This document shows, piece after piece, positions 2,473 through 14,112 of a DNA stretch of 14,275 bases; positions within the stretch are counted from its first letter, which is position 1; every line of letters starts with the position of its first letter. A program made the translations under genes and the position numbers. The stretch comes from an uncultured archaeon (GTDB lineage Archaea; Asgardarchaeota; Thorarchaeia; Thorarchaeales; Thorarchaeaceae), in assembly GCA_964590575.1 (NCBI GenBank), contig CAZPWM010000053.1, forward strand, positions 1-14,275, given 5' to 3'. The notes under the pieces are model-generated. The model was not told the DNA's origin and searched no databases. It saw nothing but the letters and a program-made list of their open reading frames with translations.

Positions 2473-2499
2473 TGAGCCCCTGTGTTCATTATTAAAGAA

Positions 2500-3531
2500 A
2501 TGAAGCTCACAAACGACCAGCGAGAAAGATACTCGCGAATGCTTGCACTCCGCGATTTTTCGGAAAACGACATGGTAACTATAATGAATACGACTGTAGC
2601 TATGTTGGGAGCCGGGGGACTTGGAAGTCCAGCACTCCGGCTTCTTGCAGCCATCGGTTTTGGTAGAATCAGAATCGTAGACCGAGATATTGTTGAGCTT
2701 TCAAACATTCAGAGGCAGACTGTATTCAATACTGAAGATATTGGTAAACCAAAAGCAGAAGCAGCTGCTGATAATCTAGAGCTGATGAATCCAGAGGTCC
2801 ATTTTGATCCAATATGTGTGTCTATTGATGAAGAAAATGTGGTTGATGTACTAAAGGGAGTAGATATTATTATTGATGGACTGGACTCTTTCGAAGCCCG
2901 CAGAGCGGTCAACAGTGCAAGTCTATCACTCAAAATACCATACGTGTTTGCAGGAGCTGTTGAATATTATGCAAACCTGACAACATTCATCCCAGGAAAA
3001 ACCGGTTGTCTACAATGTGTAATGGGAGAAGCTCAAGACAACCCTGAAAACACATGTGCACGGGTCGGAGTTTCACCAACCCTACTTTCTATTGCAGCAT
3101 CAATTGAGGTGAACGAAGCTTTGAAATTAGCCTTGGGGAGAGAGCCAGACTTAGCAAACCGCTTGATGACCATCGATGCAAGCACATTGAGTTTTGATTT
3201 CTTTGACATTGGAAGAGCAGCAGACTGTGATGCATGTTCACAGCCCAAAACAGCACCTGTTAGTAGACAGAATGAGCTTACTGTTACTCAGCTTTGTTCT
3301 CAGAGTTTCAATGTGTCACCTAGAAAATTACAGAAAATTGATCTTGAGTCATTAGCAAAGCAGTTAGACTCCGAATACTCAGTCAAGCGGATGAAGCGTT
3401 TCCTCGTGGTAAACGTTAACAAGGAGATTCGAGTGACAATAATGCCCGGGGGAAATATTGTTGTTAAGGGTGTGACTAGTACAGCCGAAGCGTCCAGACT
3501 CTTTCGAGAAATTATTGGTGATGTAAACTAA
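2500..3531 (+). CDS. moeB: ThiF/MoeB/HesA-family adenylyltransferase (E1-like) with C-terminal extension
   Basis: Motifs RYSR, GAGGLGS, DRDIVELSNIQRQ, GKPKAEAA and DGLDS; Zn pairs CLQC and CDAC; catalytic-loop Cys in TCARVGV; C-terminal LCSQSFNVSP domain. Exact pathway (Moco, thiamine, SAMP activation) unresolved. Confidence 0.9.
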   Translation: MKLTNDQRERYSRMLALRDFSENDMVTIMNTTVAMLGAGGLGSPALRLLAAIGFGRIRIVDRDIVELSNIQRQTVFNTEDIGKPKAEAAADNLELMNPEVHFDPICVSIDEENVVDVLKGVDIIIDGLDSFEARRAVNSASLSLKIPYVFAGAVEYYANLTTFIPGKTGCLQCVMGEAQDNPENTCARVGVSPTLLSIAASIEVNEALKLALGREPDLANRLMTIDASTLSFDFFDIGRAADCDACSQPKTAPVSRQNELTVTQLCSQSFNVSPRKLQKIDLESLAKQLDSEYSVKRMKRFLVVNVNKEIRVTIMPGGNIVVKGVTSTAEASRLFREIIGDVN

Positions 3532-4475
3532 TCACCGAAGAAGAGCCTTCGAGCTCGTCGGCGTCGTTCATCTTCATCCTCATCGCTATCGGGTGGTGGT
3601 GGAGGTGATGGAGGCTCTGTAATAGGTTCAGGTTCATCGGTTGATTCAATATCAGCTTCATCTTCAATCGACTTACGCTCATATTCATCCGTAGAAAATG
3701 ATGGTGGCGCAGGAATTTCTATTGATTCTGATTCTGGTGCAGGTTCATCAAAAGATATTGGGGGTTCTGCTGATTCTAGCTCAATAGGAGGTGGAAGCTC
3801 AATCTCTTCATCTTCTTCAACAAGCTCTGGGTCATCAGTATCTCGAGTCACCGCTTTTTCATAATCAGCCCAAGTAAACGACGCCCTTTCTTCTGTATCG
3901 GAGGATTCCACTTCTGGTTCCGGTTCGTGTATCACATCACCCTCATGTGGTGCAGTAGATTGTTCGATAATAAGATCAGTAGGCTCAACAAGCTCAAAAT
4001 CAGATGTAAACTCCCGTGGAGGTCCATCTATCGAAAGGGCGTCCATCTCTTCCTCTTCAAGACGACCTACGGCGTCAATACTAATAGAATCAACATCACT
4101 TTCAGATTCAATTAACACCTCAGAAGCTCCAGGTGTCAAGTCTTCAGGAGTAACTTCAAAAGTGGGGTCCGAAAGTTCTTCGAATTCAGAATAGTCCCGT
4201 GAAGAAGAATCCAGTTCATAACCAGATGGAATTTGTTCATCATTTTTGGTTTCATCATGTGGCCTTCTGTCTTCTGCAAAGGTAAGACCTAAATCATCTG
4301 TCAAACAAGACTCACAGCGCTTAGCCGCAGCAACTAATCCGTCGTGGATAAAATCATCCAGACTCTTAGCACGTTTCTCATTTCTTCGGGCCCATTTAGT
4401 AAAACTATCAACCATCCGTAATGAATCACGAACGCCCATCCAGTATTCATCGGATCGTTTCTTCTCTGAATCCAC
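3528..4475 (-). CDS. Hypothetical protein: small helical N-domain with CxxC, long acidic/Pro-rich disordered region, basic-aromatic C-terminal peptide
   Basis: Long open frame. Likely GTG start at 4475 (MDSEKKRSDEYW) after GGTGT; the ORF track starts at 4535. Ends PPSPPPPPDSDEDEDERRRRARRLFFGD. Its stop overlaps the ThiF stop by 4 nt. Confidence 0.8.
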   Translation of the reverse strand: MDSEKKRSDEYWMGVRDSLRMVDSFTKWARRNEKRAKSLDDFIHDGLVAAAKRCESCLTDDLGLTFAEDRRPHDETKNDEQIPSGYELDSSSRDYSEFEELSDPTFEVTPEDLTPGASEVLIESESDVDSISIDAVGRLEEEEMDALSIDGPPREFTSDFELVEPTDLIIEQSTAPHEGDVIHEPEPEVESSDTEERASFTWADYEKAVTRDTDDPELVEEDEEIELPPPIELESAEPPISFDEPAPESESIEIPAPPSFSTDEYERKSIEDEADIESTDEPEPITEPPSPPPPPDSDEDEDERRRRARRLFFGD

Positions 4476-4509
4476 AATTGACACCAAGCTCTGAAGAATC
4501 TGGAATCGG

Positions 4510-4516
4510 AAAAAAA
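4510..4516 (-). terminator. Possible oligo-T (T7) archaeal terminator
   Basis: T7 run on the minus strand about 15 nt after the stop at 4532. Confidence 0.3.
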
Positions 4517-4531
4517 GGTTCGTGTTATGTA

Positions 4532-5050
4532 TCACTTTTTCTTAGAGGTCGGCTTCTTGTCCTTTTCCTTCTTTTTCTTATCTTTCGCTTTGTGTTCTTT
4601 CTCTTTCTGGGCAAGAATCTCTTCAATAAGCTCATCAAAGGTGTGATGTATTTCAGTACGTTTGTACTCATCAAGTTTAGACTCGACTGTTACAACTCTT
4701 GTAGGGATTTTCGCACCAAGATTTTCGCGAATCTCGTTTCTGTATATTGTTTCCAAGTCAGGATCAGGATCTTTTAAAACAATAATCACTGCACTTGCAC
4801 CTTTGAACGTTAAGGACAAGAGAATATCAAGTGCTGCGTGTTTCGGAGACATGAAGACAGCTCGAACTTCTGAACTATCTGTGGAATGTTCAGCAGATAC
4901 AATTCGAATACCATCAACTTTCACAACAGGGTCGAATGTAGAAAGAACTTCCTCTAGTAGTGAATCGTTAGGACCAACTACGGTGATCTTAAAGAGATAC
5001 TTTGATTTTACACTCTGGTGATTGGTTTTTTTAGTCTCAGTTGAAGGCAT
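4532..5050 (-). CDS. Degenerate Ras/Rab-like small GTPase-fold protein (pseudo-GTPase) with polybasic tail
   Basis: By-eye colinearity with Rab: YLFKITVVG (beta1), TFKGASAVIIV (cf. YYRGAxGxxxV), YRNEI, IPTRVV, IHHTFDELIEEIL (alpha5). No GxxxxGK[ST], DxxG or NKxD. Start ATG 5050 preferred; the ORF track extends to 5161. Confidence 0.65.
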   Translation of the reverse strand: MPSTETKKTNHQSVKSKYLFKITVVGPNDSLLEEVLSTFDPVVKVDGIRIVSAEHSTDSSEVRAVFMSPKHAALDILLSLTFKGASAVIIVLKDPDPDLETIYRNEIRENLGAKIPTRVVTVESKLDEYKRTEIHHTFDELIEEILAQKEKEHKAKDKKKKEKDKKPTSKKK

Positions 5051-5190
5051 CCTTTCAAACCCCCGCACCATGTTGTAGTCATTAAGATGGATTACTACAG
5101 TGGCGGCTTGGCAATAGCTAGTATCTAATTTGATGCTGATATGTCTTATGTGCGTTTTCAATAAAGTATCTTTCTAGCTTTGAGCCATAG

Positions 5191-5279: not shown

Positions 5280-5648
5280 TTGAAGAATAAGGATCTGTTT
5301 ATAGTCACTATTGGATTCATCATTCTAGGTTTGGGTATTGCACTCTTGAATCTTGGAGAGAGTAGTACATTTTTTATTTTCCCCTTCTTCTTCGCAGGAA
5401 ACCTCGCTCCTATCCTAGTGATTCCAGTTCTTTTTATTATGATGATGTTTTTTTGGTGGGTGAACAAGAATTATGCAGATCATGCTCGTTTAACTCAATC
5501 ACATGAATTAAGACCTGTCTATCTTCGAACGTTTTCAACATGTCAGTTCTGTGGGAATCCTCTTCCTGAAAAAGCAGTGTTTTGTTCGTACTGCGGCAAC
5601 ACTGTCGAACGTAACTCGGAAGATAATGAATCCTTTCAGATTGATTAG
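5280..5648 (+). CDS. Small membrane protein with C-terminal zinc ribbon
   Basis: Two hydrophobic segments flanking FFIFPFFFAG, then CQFCGNPLPEKAVFCSYCG. TTG start preceded by GGAGAG. Confidence 0.8.
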   Translation: MKNKDLFIVTIGFIILGLGIALLNLGESSTFFIFPFFFAGNLAPILVIPVLFIMMMFFWWVNKNYADHARLTQSHELRPVYLRTFSTCQFCGNPLPEKAVFCSYCGNTVERNSEDNESFQID

Positions 5649-5663
5649 GAGTGACTAGATTTC

Positions 5664-6122
5664 ATGATTAGAAGAGTTCGACTGGAAGACCTGGATGATA
5701 TCATGAAGATTGAACGACAAAGTTTTCCAGTCGCGTGGGAATACTCAATTTTCCTCAATATCGGTCTTCAGGGGGGAAAGGTATCGTCAGGAGAATCAGG
5801 ATTACTACTAATGGATGTAATTGAGGAAAATGAAAAAATAATTGGCTACACAGTCTGGGAGATTGATACTCACAAAGCGGAAGGTCATATTCTCAATCTA
5901 GCAATTCAAGTGAATGAACGAAGAAAGGGAAGAGGTAGAATGTTGTTGAGTCATGTAGTCGAACATATGAAAACTAATAGTATTCACACTTGTCGCCTTG
6001 AGGTACGAGAGAGCAACATTGCAGCTAGATTGCTCTATGAGTCGAGTGGGTTTGTGCCCTCTGCTAAGATTCCAGGTTACTACTGGGATGAGGATGGTGT
6101 GATATACACAAAGGTTCTTTGA
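5664..6122 (+). CDS. rimI: RimI/Ard1-type GNAT N-acetyltransferase
   Basis: Motifs IERQSFPVAW, GHILNLAI, RRKGRG, LEVRESNIAARLLYESSGF and GYYWDEDG; GGAGTGA RBS upstream. Confidence 0.92.
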   Translation: MIRRVRLEDLDDIMKIERQSFPVAWEYSIFLNIGLQGGKVSSGESGLLLMDVIEENEKIIGYTVWEIDTHKAEGHILNLAIQVNERRKGRGRMLLSHVVEHMKTNSIHTCRLEVRESNIAARLLYESSGFVPSAKIPGYYWDEDGVIYTKVL

Positions 6123-10079: not shown

Positions 10080-10895
10080 TTACTTCTCAAACTTTGATAC
10101 TCGTTCGAATAGGTCGCTCAATTGCCCTACTTCGAGATGTGATGATTCGTCACTAGCAATAACCTCAGCTTGGATTTTGACTGAATCTCCAATCTCAGTT
10201 GTGTAAATAGTATCAAAGCCCTTTAGTGATCCTGCCTTCAATTGACTCTTGGTACTGCCTACTGTGTGGCCCTCTACTTCAATAGAAAGAAGCCACCAAT
10301 TCAGAGTTAAATCAGTAACACTTGATTTCAGATTATAGTAATTTGAGAAAAGTTGAGAGTAGAGGTCAAACACCCTGAAATTATCGATTCGAGCATGTAT
10401 TGGATTGAGTGTGACAATTCCTCTCTCGAAATCAAAGCCGAACACTAGACTGTTGCCTATCACAAGCATTACATTGTCCTCATTTACTGATGAGAAGTTG
10501 TTCCATTCTTTCTTGAATTTAGTCGTGAAATGACGGATTGAACTGACATTTAACGTGGAAAGTAAATCCTTGATTGGTATTCTTCTATCCATCATATCTC
10601 GTCCTTTCTTCTCGAGGATAAACCGTCGTATCTGTTCGAGATATTGGCTGTAACAAAAAGCCGGTAAGTCCTGTGGTGTTACACCGATCTCAATAAGTGT
10701 GTTCAAGAAATTCCTATTCTTACAAGAAGGTCTAACAGTGCAGCTTAATCTATCCTCTTGACACGCAGTACACTTCTTCTCGTGTAACTCTATTAGTTCT
10801 AGAGCTAACTGATCATCAGCTGCCGCATCTAGAAAACCAACCCTGACTGCTAGTTCCTCTTTGTGTTTCTTAAGGTTCATGAATCCCAAATCCAT
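10080..10895 (-). CDS. Hypothetical protein with N-terminal Cys cluster
   Basis: CTACQEDRLSCTVRPSC (CxxC-x6-C-x5-C) plus PAFCY; beta-rich C-terminal half. Alternative start ATG 10880. Confidence 0.8.
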   Translation of the reverse strand: MDLGFMNLKKHKEELAVRVGFLDAAADDQLALELIELHEKKCTACQEDRLSCTVRPSCKNRNFLNTLIEIGVTPQDLPAFCYSQYLEQIRRFILEKKGRDMMDRRIPIKDLLSTLNVSSIRHFTTKFKKEWNNFSSVNEDNVMLVIGNSLVFGFDFERGIVTLNPIHARIDNFRVFDLYSQLFSNYYNLKSSVTDLTLNWWLLSIEVEGHTVGSTKSQLKAGSLKGFDTIYTTEIGDSVKIQAEVIASDESSHLEVGQLSDLFERVSKFEK

Positions 10896-10916
10896 TGAAA
10901 TATTGTAACTACCTGC

Positions 10917-10936
10917 GAGATGGACCTGTCCATCTC
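10917..10936. promoter_or_regulatory. Perfect 9-bp inverted repeat GAGATGGAC-CT-GTCCATCTC
   Basis: Seen directly; intergenic, between minus-strand TATAAA (10949-10954) and the start at 10895. Confidence 0.6.
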
Positions 10937-11054
10937 TAATCGTTCTCGTTTATAGCAGAATCACAGATAGTGAGTCATGTTGCGCATTGTGGTTTCACAG
11001 AAATAAACCTATGTAACAGGGACCTCAATTTTTCATGCTCGGGTCGAGTGAAAT

Positions 11055-11930
11055 TCAGTTACTGGTCGCTATTTCTTTGAGTTTACTTTTCCATGACTTT
11101 ATTTCACGACTTAGACTTGCAATATCGTTCTCATTCAAAGTCGCAGTTGGTGGATAAGACTTAAGCTCTCGGGCTCGTTTGCCAAATTGGAATAGCACCG
11201 GGGTGTGTCCCTTAATCATTGTAGTAAGTTTGTCACGTACTTCTTCAAGGGCTTCAGCCATCTCAGTTGCTTCAGTTTGGGGGATAACAAGTGTCATCAG
11301 GTTATCCATTATTGCATCAATGGTCGATGGCAAACTCGATTTGTTGGGAGTTTGAACTTTAGGTTTCTCTTCATCGTTTGTTTCATCTGGAGTTTTCTTA
11401 ACGGGTTTCTTGGAATCTAGAGATTCCGCAGCCCCTGATTTTATGAAGTCGGAGAGTGTATCAACCGCTTCCGTGACCCTATCGATTGCCAGATTATATT
11501 TACGCTCAATATCATCTAATTGACGGACTATGATTCCCACAATCTCGTTTGTTTCATCAAATTTTCCAGCAAGGTCTTGAACTTTCTCCTCTATACCTGA
11601 AAGCCCAGCAATATAATTCTGAAGATCATCCAATTTCTTTGGAACTGCTTCACCGTCAGCCAACGATACAAGTATATCATCAATCTTCTTTATGATAACT
11701 GTTGACTCTTTAGAATCTCTGATTTCTTTTACAGCTCCCTCAATCCCATCCAGTTTCTCTGTGTAATCCATTCCCTTCAAGGATTTAGCCAGATTGTCTA
11801 TCTTCTTGTTCATATCTGACACAGATGTGAGCTCTTTTAGCTCTTCACGTAGAGAAGAAAGTTCCTCAGAAAGTTTGTCTAAGTTTCCTTGGAGTTCCTT
11901 TATTCCAGCATCACTTTTTTCGGAGGCCAT
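11055..11930 (-). CDS. Hypothetical segmented coiled-coil protein with linker and C-terminal helical bundle
   Basis: Heptad segments in aa ~10-165, Lys/Pro/Glu linker, helical C-domain ending IKSWKSKL; AGGGGA RBS upstream. Confidence 0.85.
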   Translation of the reverse strand: MASEKSDAGIKELQGNLDKLSEELSSLREELKELTSVSDMNKKIDNLAKSLKGMDYTEKLDGIEGAVKEIRDSKESTVIIKKIDDILVSLADGEAVPKKLDDLQNYIAGLSGIEEKVQDLAGKFDETNEIVGIIVRQLDDIERKYNLAIDRVTEAVDTLSDFIKSGAAESLDSKKPVKKTPDETNDEEKPKVQTPNKSSLPSTIDAIMDNLMTLVIPQTEATEMAEALEEVRDKLTTMIKGHTPVLFQFGKRARELKSYPPTATLNENDIASLSREIKSWKSKLKEIATSN

Positions 11931-11950
11931 GACATCCCCTGCTAAGATAG

Positions 11951-11960
11951 CAATATTGTC
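11951..11960. promoter_or_regulatory. CAATATTGTC motif over the predicted transcription start
   Basis: ~21 nt upstream of ATG 11930 and ~25 nt downstream of the putative TATA element. Confidence 0.35.
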
Positions 11961-11978
11961 CGTTCAGTGTTAATGTGT

Positions 11979-11997
11979 GTAATTAGCCTTTCGGGAA
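11979..11997 (-). promoter_or_regulatory. Putative BRE-TATA element (TTCCCGAAAGGCTAATTAC)
   Basis: 11982-11997 is 15/16 identical to 5194-5209, in the same orientation relative to a minus-strand gene. Confidence 0.5.
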
Positions 11998-12037
11998 TGT
12001 AATCATCTGACAGAATGAGCGATATTCTACGAAAATT

Positions 12038-12883
12038 CTACGCACTCTTGGCTCGAATCACCTCAATATTGACATCCTCAAGCATTGGTAGAATATGCGC
12101 TTTGTTTTCTGCGTTCAATCCCTTCCAATCAATAATAGCAGATACGATTGGATTTGCTGAACGCGTAATCATTTGATTCAGGACATCAAGTGTTAGATCA
12201 TTGATAGCATATTTTGGAGCCATGTGGCCAATCTTATACCCTTTCTCCAATACAATCTTGTTGAACTTACTTGCATAGTGGGTGCCGCCAAAGCCAATCA
12301 CAGCATCACCAGAGAGTGGTTCATCAATGCAATCCATGACCGCAGCAGCTACAGCTTTTGCACCATCCTGATGAGTCCAAAACTCTTCTGAACTTCCTAG
12401 CTCCACAAACACAAGTGGTGTCTTCATTTTTGTAGGACCATGATGCGTCACTTCTAATGACACATCGAACTCAAAGAGGTCGGTTTTGTTTCGTATTTCA
12501 AACAACCTCTGAAGTGCAACCGAAACCAATGAAGGAGCTGAAACAGAGAGTTGATGAGGAGCTCCACCAAAGAGTGCTTCACTACCAAGATTCCCCGTGC
12601 TATGCACCAGGAGTGCTGGTTTTGCAGATTCAGCCTGATGTCTAGAGCAGAAGATGAATGCCTCAGTGTTAAAGTGACTCTCAAGATGGTCGCAATGAAT
12701 CATGTCACGAGTGGTTGTTATAAGCTGGGCATTTTTACCATTAGAAAAAATAGGGTTCCCTTCGAATGAATCATCTGTTGGAAAGAAACCATAATTTCTG
12801 AGAAGAATATCTTTGATTGTTATACTAGCAATATCTTGCTCTGAAGTAACTAGGGTCCTCAAATTAGATGTCCTCAATGTCAT
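12038..12883 (-). CDS. dtdA: D-aminoacyl-tRNA deacylase (archaeal DTD2)
   Basis: Motifs SRH, VHSTGN, EVTHHGPT, FVELGS..W, IGFGGTHYA, GHMAPKY and IDWKG. ATGA overlap with the upstream gene; alternative TTG start at 12862. Confidence 0.95.
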   Translation of the reverse strand: MTLRTSNLRTLVTSEQDIASITIKDILLRNYGFFPTDDSFEGNPIFSNGKNAQLITTTRDMIHCDHLESHFNTEAFIFCSRHQAESAKPALLVHSTGNLGSEALFGGAPHQLSVSAPSLVSVALQRLFEIRNKTDLFEFDVSLEVTHHGPTKMKTPLVFVELGSSEEFWTHQDGAKAVAAAVMDCIDEPLSGDAVIGFGGTHYASKFNKIVLEKGYKIGHMAPKYAINDLTLDVLNQMITRSANPIVSAIIDWKGLNAENKAHILPMLEDVNIEVIRAKSA

Positions 12884-14112
12884 TTAATCTTACACAAATC
12901 GAGTAATGGTTCAAGACTAACTTCTACATCAATGTTGACTTTCTCATTAAAAGCATCAAGGATTTCAGATTCGATGCGCTTCTTGAACTCTTTTACCTTG
13001 TCAATTTGCCTTGTGATATCATCCCTAATTCGAAGTAAATCATTACTGTGATATTCCAAGTTTTTCGAGGCTTCATTTAGAGCATTTTGAAGTGTTTCAG
13101 TCCGCGAATATACATCAGAACCCGCGTAGGTGTTACGCTTGTTTTCAATTTCCTTTGCTTGATCCTGAAACTTCTGCAAACCACCATTGCGAATTGCTTC
13201 AACTTCTTCAATAGCGCGTCTCGCAAGTCGATCTTTCAAAGGCAGCATCCCATTTTCGATTGCTTTCTGTAATCCAGTCAGTCCCTCAAGAAGCCCAGGA
13301 TATCCATCGGATTCCTCAGTAATCGCTGTATATGGATCTTCAAAGTACTCAGTCAAAGCTTTTTGACCAGCCGGTCCAACTCGAACACCAGTGTCATGTT
13401 GGAAGAATTTCTTTACCTGTTTCTTCAAAGGATTGAGTTTCATTCTTAGGAGACTACTCACATGTTCAGCCTGTTCATCAAGACTAAGCAGCTCTGCAAC
13501 ATTGGAAGCTTTTGTAAATTCAGTATACGCCTTCTTTGCAGTATCAAATTCATTTTGTGCTGTTTCAATCTTTTGACGGACTTGGCGAATCTGCTCTTCG
13601 AACGTTTCTTTGCTGAATGTCAAATCGTGAAGGGTGTCAATACGACCACCGATTCGCTCCAGATCTTTAACCCAACTATATTCGTACAATAGCTTGCCTA
13701 TCTTATTCATTTCTCGAGCTAGTTCTTTCATGTAGGTGTCAAGAGATTTGATCACATTCTTGTAACGCTTGTCCATCCTCCGGATCCACCGGGCTCCAGC
13801 CCCCCACAGTTCTTGAATAAAATGCTGAATTTCGCTCTGCATCGCCTCAGTGTTCTCATATGTAATTTCTTTATCAACATAGAAGTCAGAAACAATCTCG
13901 CCAATTTTCAATGCGAACCTCGCTGCGATACCTCCAGATTCGAGTTCTTCATCATCTTCCTCTTTAAATACCCGTGATACCTCTTCGATGTCCTTCAATG
14001 CGGTTTCTACAATTTTGTAGCTCTTTTCGGCTTGTTTGATGAAATCTTTCGATTTGTTTTGGAGCTGTTTCCGATACCATTTCTGGAGCTGTTCGACAGT
14101 AAGGTTAGTCAT
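12880..14112 (-). CDS. Hypothetical archaeal coiled-coil protein
   Basis: Two coiled-coil arms flanking a central PLKKQVKK...YFEDP...GYPGL region; no ATPase motifs; AGGTGAG RBS at 14121-14127. Confidence 0.85.
   Translation of the reverse strand: MTNLTVEQLQKWYRKQLQNKSKDFIKQAEKSYKIVETALKDIEEVSRVFKEEDDEELESGGIAARFALKIGEIVSDFYVDKEITYENTEAMQSEIQHFIQELWGAGARWIRRMDKRYKNVIKSLDTYMKELAREMNKIGKLLYEYSWVKDLERIGGRIDTLHDLTFSKETFEEQIRQVRQKIETAQNEFDTAKKAYTEFTKASNVAELLSLDEQAEHVSSLLRMKLNPLKKQVKKFFQHDTGVRVGPAGQKALTEYFEDPYTAITEESDGYPGLLEGLTGLQKAIENGMLPLKDRLARRAIEEVEAIRNGGLQKFQDQAKEIENKRNTYAGSDVYSRTETLQNALNEASKNLEYHSNDLLRIRDDITRQIDKVKEFKKRIESEILDAFNEKVNIDVEVSLEPLLDLCKIK

Follow-up and report, generated by a model that had tools for sequence, protein, structure and literature searches.

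The question raised by this locus is whether a G domain that has lost its nucleotide-binding motifs can be kept as a protein in its own right, and what such a protein may do. The locus lies on contig CAZPWM010000053.1 (assembly GCA_964590575.1) of an uncultured archaeon of the Thorarchaeaceae. The whole stretch analysed, 14,275 nt in length, is called the window. In it, a reverse-strand reading frame encodes a protein of 172 aa, which an original prediction from the sequence alone had described as a Rab/Ras-like pseudoGTPase. Our results indicate that the 172-aa protein is a diverged Rab-like G domain. As judged from sequence and model, it is probably a class-i-like pseudoGTPase, that is, a nucleotide-independent binding module derived from an Asgard Rab-like GTPase.

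The frame is uninterrupted from an ATG at 5050 to the TGA stop at 4532-4534 (172 codons). An alternative longer frame with a TTG start extends to 5161; the ATG at 5050 is supported as the start because 33 aligned orthologues begin about 15-20 residues ahead of the conserved YLFKITVVG. A MAFFT alignment combined the protein with canonical small GTPases from Asgard archaea (four) and Ras-family paralogues of its own genome (three). GPNDSLLE (residues 26-33) fell without gaps on the G1 sequence GDGGVGKTS, with Lys replaced by Leu and Ser/Thr by Glu. FMSPKH (66-71) fell in the same way on WDIAGQ of G3, and DxxG was absent. VTVESKL (120-126) was aligned gap-free with (F)GNKIDL of G4; Asn, Lys and Asp were gone and the [NT]KxD pattern was not found. 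Switch I showed a 6-residue deletion that removed the context of the G2 Thr. No segment was aligned with TSAK or SAK of G5, and the chain stops after one helix, beta6 being absent in both the alignment and the structural model. The original prediction had named an intact frame, a scaffold colinear with Rab, these same replacements of G1, G3 and G4 and a deletion of the alpha4-beta6/G5 region, and all of these features were recovered. As all G motifs and the beta6/SAK element are lost, GTP is probably neither bound nor hydrolysed. The protein fails the motifs that define a Ras-family GTPase and should therefore not be filed as one. The C-terminus (...KKPTSKKK) contains no Cys and thus no Rab-type prenylation motif; the Lys-rich tail (148-172) is probably an accessory electrostatic tether.

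To describe the fold, we used an AlphaFold2 (AF2) model built on a 33-sequence alignment. The best model had a mean predicted local distance difference test score (pLDDT) of 73 and a predicted template modelling score (pTM) of 0.65. Its elements follow in the order beta1 (16-25), alpha1 (29-39), beta2 (42-56), beta3 (60-69), alpha2 (71-82), beta4 (87-92), alpha3 (97-110), beta5 (117-121) and a long C-terminal helix (128-164). Only three residues (G26-P27-N28) connect beta1 to alpha1; this helix begins at residue 29, ahead of its start in a P-loop protein by 2-3 residues, and the phosphate and Mg-ligand positions are taken by D29 and E33. The anion hole thus appears closed in the model. Foldseek returned at least 500 PDB matches at E <= 0.001, the best being Rab23 (8ynr, E 2.6e-7, TM score about 0.6); among the matches listed (43 rows, ranks 1-50 with gaps), all were Rab or Rho. 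VIA-align was run independently of Foldseek on 48,161 representative chains, and its best 50 rows were all GTPase-fold chains. Rab23 was again the best (9rs9_C, Z 15.1, root-mean-square deviation 2.5 Å, 138 residues aligned of a 168-residue chain), followed by Ypt32, Rab3C, Sec4 and Rab32. By prediction (AF2, Foldseek, VIA-align), the protein has the G-domain alpha/beta fold of the Ras superfamily.

Homology was then assessed on sequence. Pfam assigned no family to the 172-aa protein: no Ras, Roc or Arf match was found at E <= 0.1, the gathering cut-off of Ras (PF00071) was not reached, and the protein was not among the 27 Ras-family matches of its own genome. A narrow alignment of the family (A1) matched Rab23 and Ypt32 weakly among PDB sequences (E 0.13-0.39), and gave an hhalign probability of just 39% against the Ras proteins of the same genome. 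Three sequence bridges were obtained with wider sampling. When 400 genomes of the phylum were searched with a profile built from 13 diverse family members (A3), canonical Asgard GTPases (GDGGVGKTS, WDIAGQ, GNKxDL, TSAK) were matched at about 1e-10 per genome. L079, a P-loop-less protein of another Asgard family (f16) that reads GPREE and has only WD left of G3, exceeded the Pfam cut-offs of both Ras (26.1 vs 21.6 bits) and Roc (32.5 vs 27 bits). A 19-sequence alignment covering six families (A6) matched an alignment of 15 of the 27 own-genome Ras-family matches (A2) with an hhalign probability of 95.4% (E 1.8e-8, 83 columns). Among PDB sequences, A6 matched 147 distinct sequences at E <= 0.01 with Ypt32 as the best (E 1.5e-10), and the best 60 of the 147 were all Rab/Ypt, Rab1 included. 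A protein language-model look-up, taken as a source of leads only, returned the protein's own Thorarchaeota cluster first and then G-domain families. The three bridges indicate that the resemblance comes from divergence of a Rab-like G domain and not from convergence; judged by these comparisons, the protein shares common descent with Rab/Ras proteins.

A search of a large protein collection gave 212 homologues at E <= 0.01, and the named ones were all 'hypothetical protein' of Thorarchaeota or Promethearchaeota. A 50%-representative library gave 15 matches at E <= 0.001, two of them spurious; P0135 and P0136 were set aside as homologues, being long repeat proteins matched over short stretches. 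The gene is carried by 43 species-level genomes; its own genome has one copy of it, beside the 27 Ras-family matches there. In the 400-genome search, a strong match (E <= 3.6e-44) was found in 74 of the 85 genomes of the GTDB family of the window (f1). One of the remaining genomes has a weak match only, and the ten without a match are 62-93% complete. Tallies for remote families at E <= 0.01 include canonical GTPases, and only loci read directly were counted there (one each in f2, f30 and f19, three in f17 and two in f16). P-loop-less relatives were read in all these five further Asgard families. Those of f16, which keep the WD of G3 and exceed both Pfam cut-offs (Ras and Roc), have the appearance of an intermediate. 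In an unrooted maximum-likelihood tree, one branch with support 100/99 separated 17 P-loop-less rows from six families from 20 canonical rows. The split is compatible with a single ancient loss.

Selection was estimated by the Nei-Gojobori method on 132 core codons of 40 orthologues, and the frame was intact in all 40. The ratio of nonsynonymous to synonymous substitution rates (dN/dS) had a median of 0.106 and a range of 0.049-0.251 for the usable pairs (0.05 < dS < 1.5; 54 of 780). Most other pairs were synonymously saturated while the proteins were still 60-90% identical. The missing Pfam match and the hhalign value of the narrow alignment are what would be seen if a generic alpha/beta (flavodoxin-like) protein had converged on the G domain, or if the gene were a decaying remnant. 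Such a reading is already contradicted by the significant bridges to Rab/Ras (A3, L079, A6) and by intact frames under dN/dS of about 0.1, and we give it almost no weight. The original prediction had anticipated that structure and profile comparisons would return Ras-superfamily G domains, that automated annotation would call the protein hypothetical, and that the gene would be under purifying selection across orthologues and not a decaying singleton. The results given above agree with it on each of these points.

The G motifs have given way to other conserved residues. In an alignment of 33 Thorarchaeota sequences, 32 columns were invariant, many of them charged: G26, P27, D29, L32, L36, F39, D46-G-I-R-I50, M67, P69, H71, L77, L78, T81, A85, I90, D96, P97, E100, Y103-R-N-E106, R108, G112, P116, T117, E133 and I145. 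With more distant members added, K21, G26, P27, G47, A73, V91, E100, Y103, G112 and P116 were invariant, and the widest alignment left only G26, G47, G112 and P116. These alignments mark the family by two features, the 'GP' that closes beta1 and the motif in alpha3. The GPN-loop GTPases were considered on account of 'GPN' and rejected, since this sequence is GPD or GPE in most orthologues and sits at the P-loop position; the GPN loop of GPN-loop GTPases lies elsewhere.

The invariant polar residues at the former P-loop (G26-P-x-D29), beta2 (D46-G-I-R49) and switch II (M67-x-P-x-H71) could also belong to a non-canonical nucleotide or small-ligand binder, either a class ii/iii pseudoGTPase or a re-built pocket, which would still switch or sense through them. 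The position of H71 corresponds to that of the catalytic Gln in Ras-like proteins, and the language-model leads include the atypical GTPases RabL5/IFT22 and Arl16 at 0.87-0.88. However, no Lys or Ser/Thr is left for phosphate and Mg, two acidic residues (D29 and E33) hold the phosphate site, and the modelled beta1-alpha1 loop is only 3 residues long. The guanine-specificity elements NKxD and SAK are gone as well, the latter with its entire strand. A ligand binder is unlikely on this evidence. The strength of conservation, with 32 invariant columns and dN/dS of about 0.1, is unusual for a scaffold, and could instead reflect a new catalytic site (His71, Asp, Arg, Glu) built on the G-domain scaffold and unrelated to GTP hydrolysis. 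No similarity to enzyme families besides GTPases was found by Pfam, PDB profile, Foldseek or VIA-align, and distant members have replaced H71 (by Q in P0123 and P0129; by K, E or other residues in f30, f19, f17 and f16). The residues kept in the widest alignment are structural ones. We regard a neo-functionalised enzyme as improbable, more so than a ligand binder, and the pattern of conserved residues fits a binding surface better than a new catalytic site.

The 172-aa protein shares its superfamily and fold core with the Asgard Rab-like GTPases (Thor-Rab and the own-genome Ras matches, the latter at the hhalign value of 95.4%), and beta1 FKITVxG, the beta4 region YKGAxGAIIV and beta5 xIPxxxV are common to both. 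It differs from them in lacking G1-G5, beta6 and one helix, in the 6-residue switch-I deletion and in its own invariant motifs GPxD, VDGIRI and YRNExR. According to PMC10933270, Thor-Rab (Thorarchaeota SMTZ1-45, PDB 7EZB) binds GDP and GTP-gamma-S and releases phosphate, and it is also without a C-terminal Cys prenylation motif. Among the matches listed, eukaryotic Rabs (Rab23, Ypt32/Rab11, Rab1, Rab8, Rab35) gave the best structural (Z 15.1-13) and sequence-profile matches (E 1.5e-10 to 1e-7). Unlike these, the 172-aa protein has no nucleotide motifs and no prenylatable Cys (it ends in KKK), and its core is about 30 residues shorter.

To our knowledge, pseudoGTPases have so far been described mainly from eukaryotes, and CENP-M is a eukaryotic member of class i. 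The G domain of class i pseudoGTPases lacks the conserved G-motif residues, as does the 172-aa protein, and AAGAB psGD, p190 pG1/pG2 and CENP-M act by protein-protein binding. PMC12490416 defines class i by the absence of nucleotide binding and of catalysis, and reports that AAGAB psGD binds AP sigma subunits via a surface away from the switches; pG1 and pG2 of p190RhoGAP are a further example (PMC5593906). The off-switch surface of AAGAB psGD parallels the conserved alpha3 surface of the 172-aa protein. In contrast to this free-standing, trimmed and archaeal protein, the three known examples are eukaryotic, and those of p190 are domains of a large protein. AAGAB, p190 and CENP-M were not among the matches listed by Foldseek, VIA-align and the PDB profile, which does not exclude a relationship. 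As to class i itself, the GTPase fold is present by prediction only, the G-motif residues are absent, and failure to bind and hydrolyse nucleotide is expected from sequence and model. By analogy, the 172-aa protein would be closest in function to the class i pseudoGTPases.

In our main reading, the protein descends from an Asgard Rab-like small GTPase and keeps the core of beta1-beta5, alpha1-alpha3 and one C-terminal helix. Missing are Lys/Ser of the P-loop, Thr of switch I, the DxxG and NKxD motifs and the entire beta6/SAK element, and the protein would have become a constitutive, switch-less protein-binding module. The docking surface may consist of the former P-loop, beta2, the former switch II and alpha3 (GPxD, VDGIRI, MSPxH, DPxxE, YRNExR, PTR). 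For such an adaptor role, a putative partner is encoded by the next gene.

Downstream of the 172-aa protein, on the same strand, lies the gene of an acidic protein (Table 1). TTG 4487 is its most likely start, and not GTG 4535, which overlaps the stop of the upstream gene, since orthologues start there, 31-139 nt after the pseudoGTPase gene. Its N-terminal domain is highly conserved (YWMGVRDALRMVDSF...GLxAAAKRCESCL, also written YWMGVRDxLRMVDSF...AAAKRCESCL) and models as a two-helix hairpin (pLDDT 83). Pfam gave no family for the protein, and a Protein Atlas look-up gave no usable match for the N-domain. An acidic disordered region follows, with a net charge of -65 (computed on the 335-aa frame from GTG 4535) and of -44 to -91 across orthologues. 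The linker carries the conserved short motifs GPxREFxSDFELVEP and SFTWADYEKAVTP and a polyproline tract of 7-8 consecutive prolines. The C-terminus is RRRRARRLFFGD (RRLFFG), with EERRRRARRLFFG[DAT] invariant across orthologues; as a lead only, it may resemble the C-terminus of MinD, which is basic-hydrophobic and membrane-targeting. We considered the protein as a ubiquitin-like substrate of the adjacent ThiF-type enzyme and rejected this, as it ends in FFG[DAT], FFSA or TFFF and not in GG, and its N-domain is a helical hairpin and not a beta-grasp. The spacer between the two genes contains a T-run of at least 5 in 22 of 39 cases, and a CTTTATTC-type element in most others. From its sequence, this T-rich element may be a promoter for a leaderless transcript, resembling a B recognition element (BRE) and TATA box, and/or an oligo-T terminator. 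An operon is not established because of this conserved element.

Table 1. Features of the window, occurrence of genes among 43 loci surveyed for gene order (+/-6 kb, many ending at contig ends), and P-loop-less relatives in other Asgard families.
Feature	Position	Strand	Loci	Basis or remarks
PseudoGTPase (probable) coding sequence, 172 aa	4532..5050	-	43/43	Translation, orthologue alignment, fold, homology; stop codon 4532-4534 included
G1/P-loop relic G26-P-N-D-S-L-L-E33	4952..4975	-		Alignment; G26, P27, D29 invariant in family
G3/switch II relic F66-M-S-P-K-H71	4838..4855	-		Alignment; M67, P69, H71 invariant in narrow alignment A1
G4 relic V120-T-V-E-S-K-L126	4673..4693	-		Alignment
Invariant helix-alpha3 motif Y103-R-N-E-I-R108	4727..4744	-		Orthologue alignments; strongest family signature, non-GTPase motif
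Lys-rich disordered C-terminal tail, residues 148-172	4535..4609	-		Lineage-specific length; missing in many orthologues
Possible BRE/TATA-like element (AAAGATACTTTATTG)	5155..5175	-		About 105-120 nt upstream of ATG; putative, read by eye only
Acidic neighbour, 319 aa from TTG 4487	3528..4487	-	40/43	Orthologue starts, motif alignment
T-rich spacer element, T7 at 4510-4516	4505..4525	-		44-nt spacer, about 22-28 nt before neighbour start
ThiF/MoeB-type E1-like enzyme	2482-3531	+	32/43	PF00899, E 4e-67; opposite strand
Small membrane protein with C-terminal zinc ribbon	5280-5648	+	37/43	Opposite strand to pseudoGTPase
GNAT (RimI-like) acetyltransferase	5664-6122	+	41/43	Opposite strand to pseudoGTPase
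TrmB-HTH/coiled-coil protein, 1313 aa	6123-10064	-	41/43	
DUF362			35/43	
Aminotransferase			34/43	
f2 relative				GPND
f30 relatives	L081:2995-3438 and 3698-4144	+		Tandem pair of diverged paralogues, GPND and GPDD
f19 relative				GPND, 272 aa, Lys-rich tail
f17 relatives	L074:3140-3547, 3690-4055; L073:2034-2844	-, +; -		GTSD, about 195 aa, conserved C-terminal GKPxYKxDEFGF
f16 relatives	L079:2989-3939; L078:249-1250	+; +		GPREE, 316-333 aa, Cys-containing C-terminal extension

The order of the genes around the pseudoGTPase is kept across the 43 loci (Table 1), and several other features were recorded. The 1313-aa protein has an N-terminal TrmB-type helix-turn-helix (HTH) domain (PF01978), behind which an apolipoprotein-like coiled coil extends over about 1000 residues. 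The zinc-ribbon and GNAT genes are 16 nt apart, and the pair is divergent from the pseudoGTPase gene. The C-terminal stretch of the ThiF-type enzyme is weakly TBP-fold-like (PF00352, E 4e-4, below cut-off). A run on the reverse strand at 10080-14112 encodes a 271-aa protein without family, a 291-aa coiled-coil protein, an archaeal D-aminoacyl-tRNA deacylase (PF04414) and a 410-aa coiled-coil protein; the start of the deacylase overlaps the stop of the 410-aa gene by 4 nt. The last genes of this run were not seen within +/-6 kb of the 43 loci. The tandem pair of f30 sits directly upstream of the genes of ribosomal protein L15e and of an RNA_binding (PF01877) protein. The C-terminal extension of the f16 relatives is about 170 residues long, with Cys motifs (CxxC...C) and a basic tail.

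In Thorarchaeota, the pseudoGTPase might bind the adjacent hairpin protein, in a manner similar to the helical hairpins of Rab effectors. Through its disordered linker with the short motifs and its RRLFFG C-terminus, the neighbour might then connect the two proteins with a membrane or with other partners. In f1, the pseudoGTPase gave strong matches and the neighbour N-domain was present in the same number of genomes (74/85 each), and the same ten genomes were without both; G335 has no neighbour and the weak pseudoGTPase match. Such co-presence is expected of adjacent genes in incomplete genomes. A complex prediction of neighbour residues 1-80 with residues 13-155 of the pseudoGTPase, both given as alignments and run without controls, had a score of 0.00 and a mark of 0.32, and speaks neither for nor against binding. 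In two metatranscriptome libraries, in which about a tenth of the sampled words were present, three short contigs fell on the neighbour gene (3577-3864, 4259-4460) and none on the pseudoGTPase gene, from which nothing is concluded on expression. A longer-protein search for fused forms, with 7999 scored candidates, found one 1634-aa multi-NTPase and no close fusion, which is weak evidence.

Homologues of the neighbour were also read in other families. Those of f14 (L090:3483-4196 and L093:3501-4208, both on the forward strand) have the N-domain, a Pro/Glu-rich linker and the C-terminus KRRTFFF. They lie near Roadblock/LC7 genes, of which that in L090 scored 25.0 bits (over the cut-off of 23) and that in L093 16.2 bits (under it). 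A thioredoxin gene is also found near the neighbour-like gene in the f14 loci, and L093 has an Arf-family GTPase as well. Elsewhere, f14 has a short paralogue of about 80 aa that consists of the N-domain only. In f3, the N-domain was found (1/1) and no clear pseudoGTPase was seen. In one f17 locus, the gene next to the pseudoGTPase is a borderline Roadblock/LC7 match (22.7 bits, cut-off 23); in another, the pseudoGTPase stands beside two SCP2-like genes. These few and related loci give hints that both gene families are associated with small-GTPase/Roadblock neighbourhoods.

That the protein is homologous to Rab, has lost the motifs, is conserved and is under purifying selection we count as established, and the fold as established by prediction. 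A number of observations weigh against a nucleotide-independent adaptor that acts with its neighbour. The nucleotide independence is read from sequence and from a model of middling confidence, and the remaining four of the five AF2 models had pLDDT of only 49-57. The invariant D29, D46, R49, H71, D96, E100, R104, N105, E106, R108 and T117 would equally fit a ligand or catalytic site. The clade split in the tree is favoured partly by the lost columns themselves and by long branches. As for the neighbour, the promoter- or terminator-like element in the spacer makes the link weaker than that of an operon, and the sister family f2 (L082) keeps the two genes adjacent but divergently oriented. The neighbour N-domain was not found in f16 (0/6), f17 (0/3), f19 (0/2) or f30 (0/5), all with P-loop-less relatives, and conversely f14 has the N-domain (18/19) without an evident pseudoGTPase. 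The charge of the Lys-rich tail was uncorrelated with the net charge of the neighbour (rho 0.06, p 0.71, n=35, rows not independent).

We found no description of this family in the papers searched on pseudoGTPases and Asgard small GTPases, supplements being outside the scope. In PMC10933270, which treats Asgard, small GTPases, the P-loop and Thorarchaeota, the word 'pseudo' is absent, and 'archaea' is absent in the AAGAB paper (PMC12490416). The results describe a conserved, selected, free-standing, Rab-derived family of probable pseudoGTPases across several Asgard families. They indicate that the GTPases of archaea had already given rise to non-switching forms. Being small and soluble-looking, the protein lends itself to experiments, and the gene next to it encodes a conserved candidate partner with many short motifs of the eukaryotic kind. 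A wider proposal, which we put forward as a speculation with the odds clearly against it, is that an ancient Rab-derived class-i clade serves in several Asgard lineages to recruit other proteins without acting as a switch. Its docking site in Thorarchaeota would be a hairpin scaffold that has an acidic linker bearing short linear motifs, a polyproline tract (a possible link to profilin and actin) and a membrane-anchoring C-terminus. If this were true, the wiring of a small-GTPase network through a pseudoenzyme and a disordered scaffold, thought to be a eukaryotic elaboration, would already have been present in the archaeal relatives of eukaryotes.

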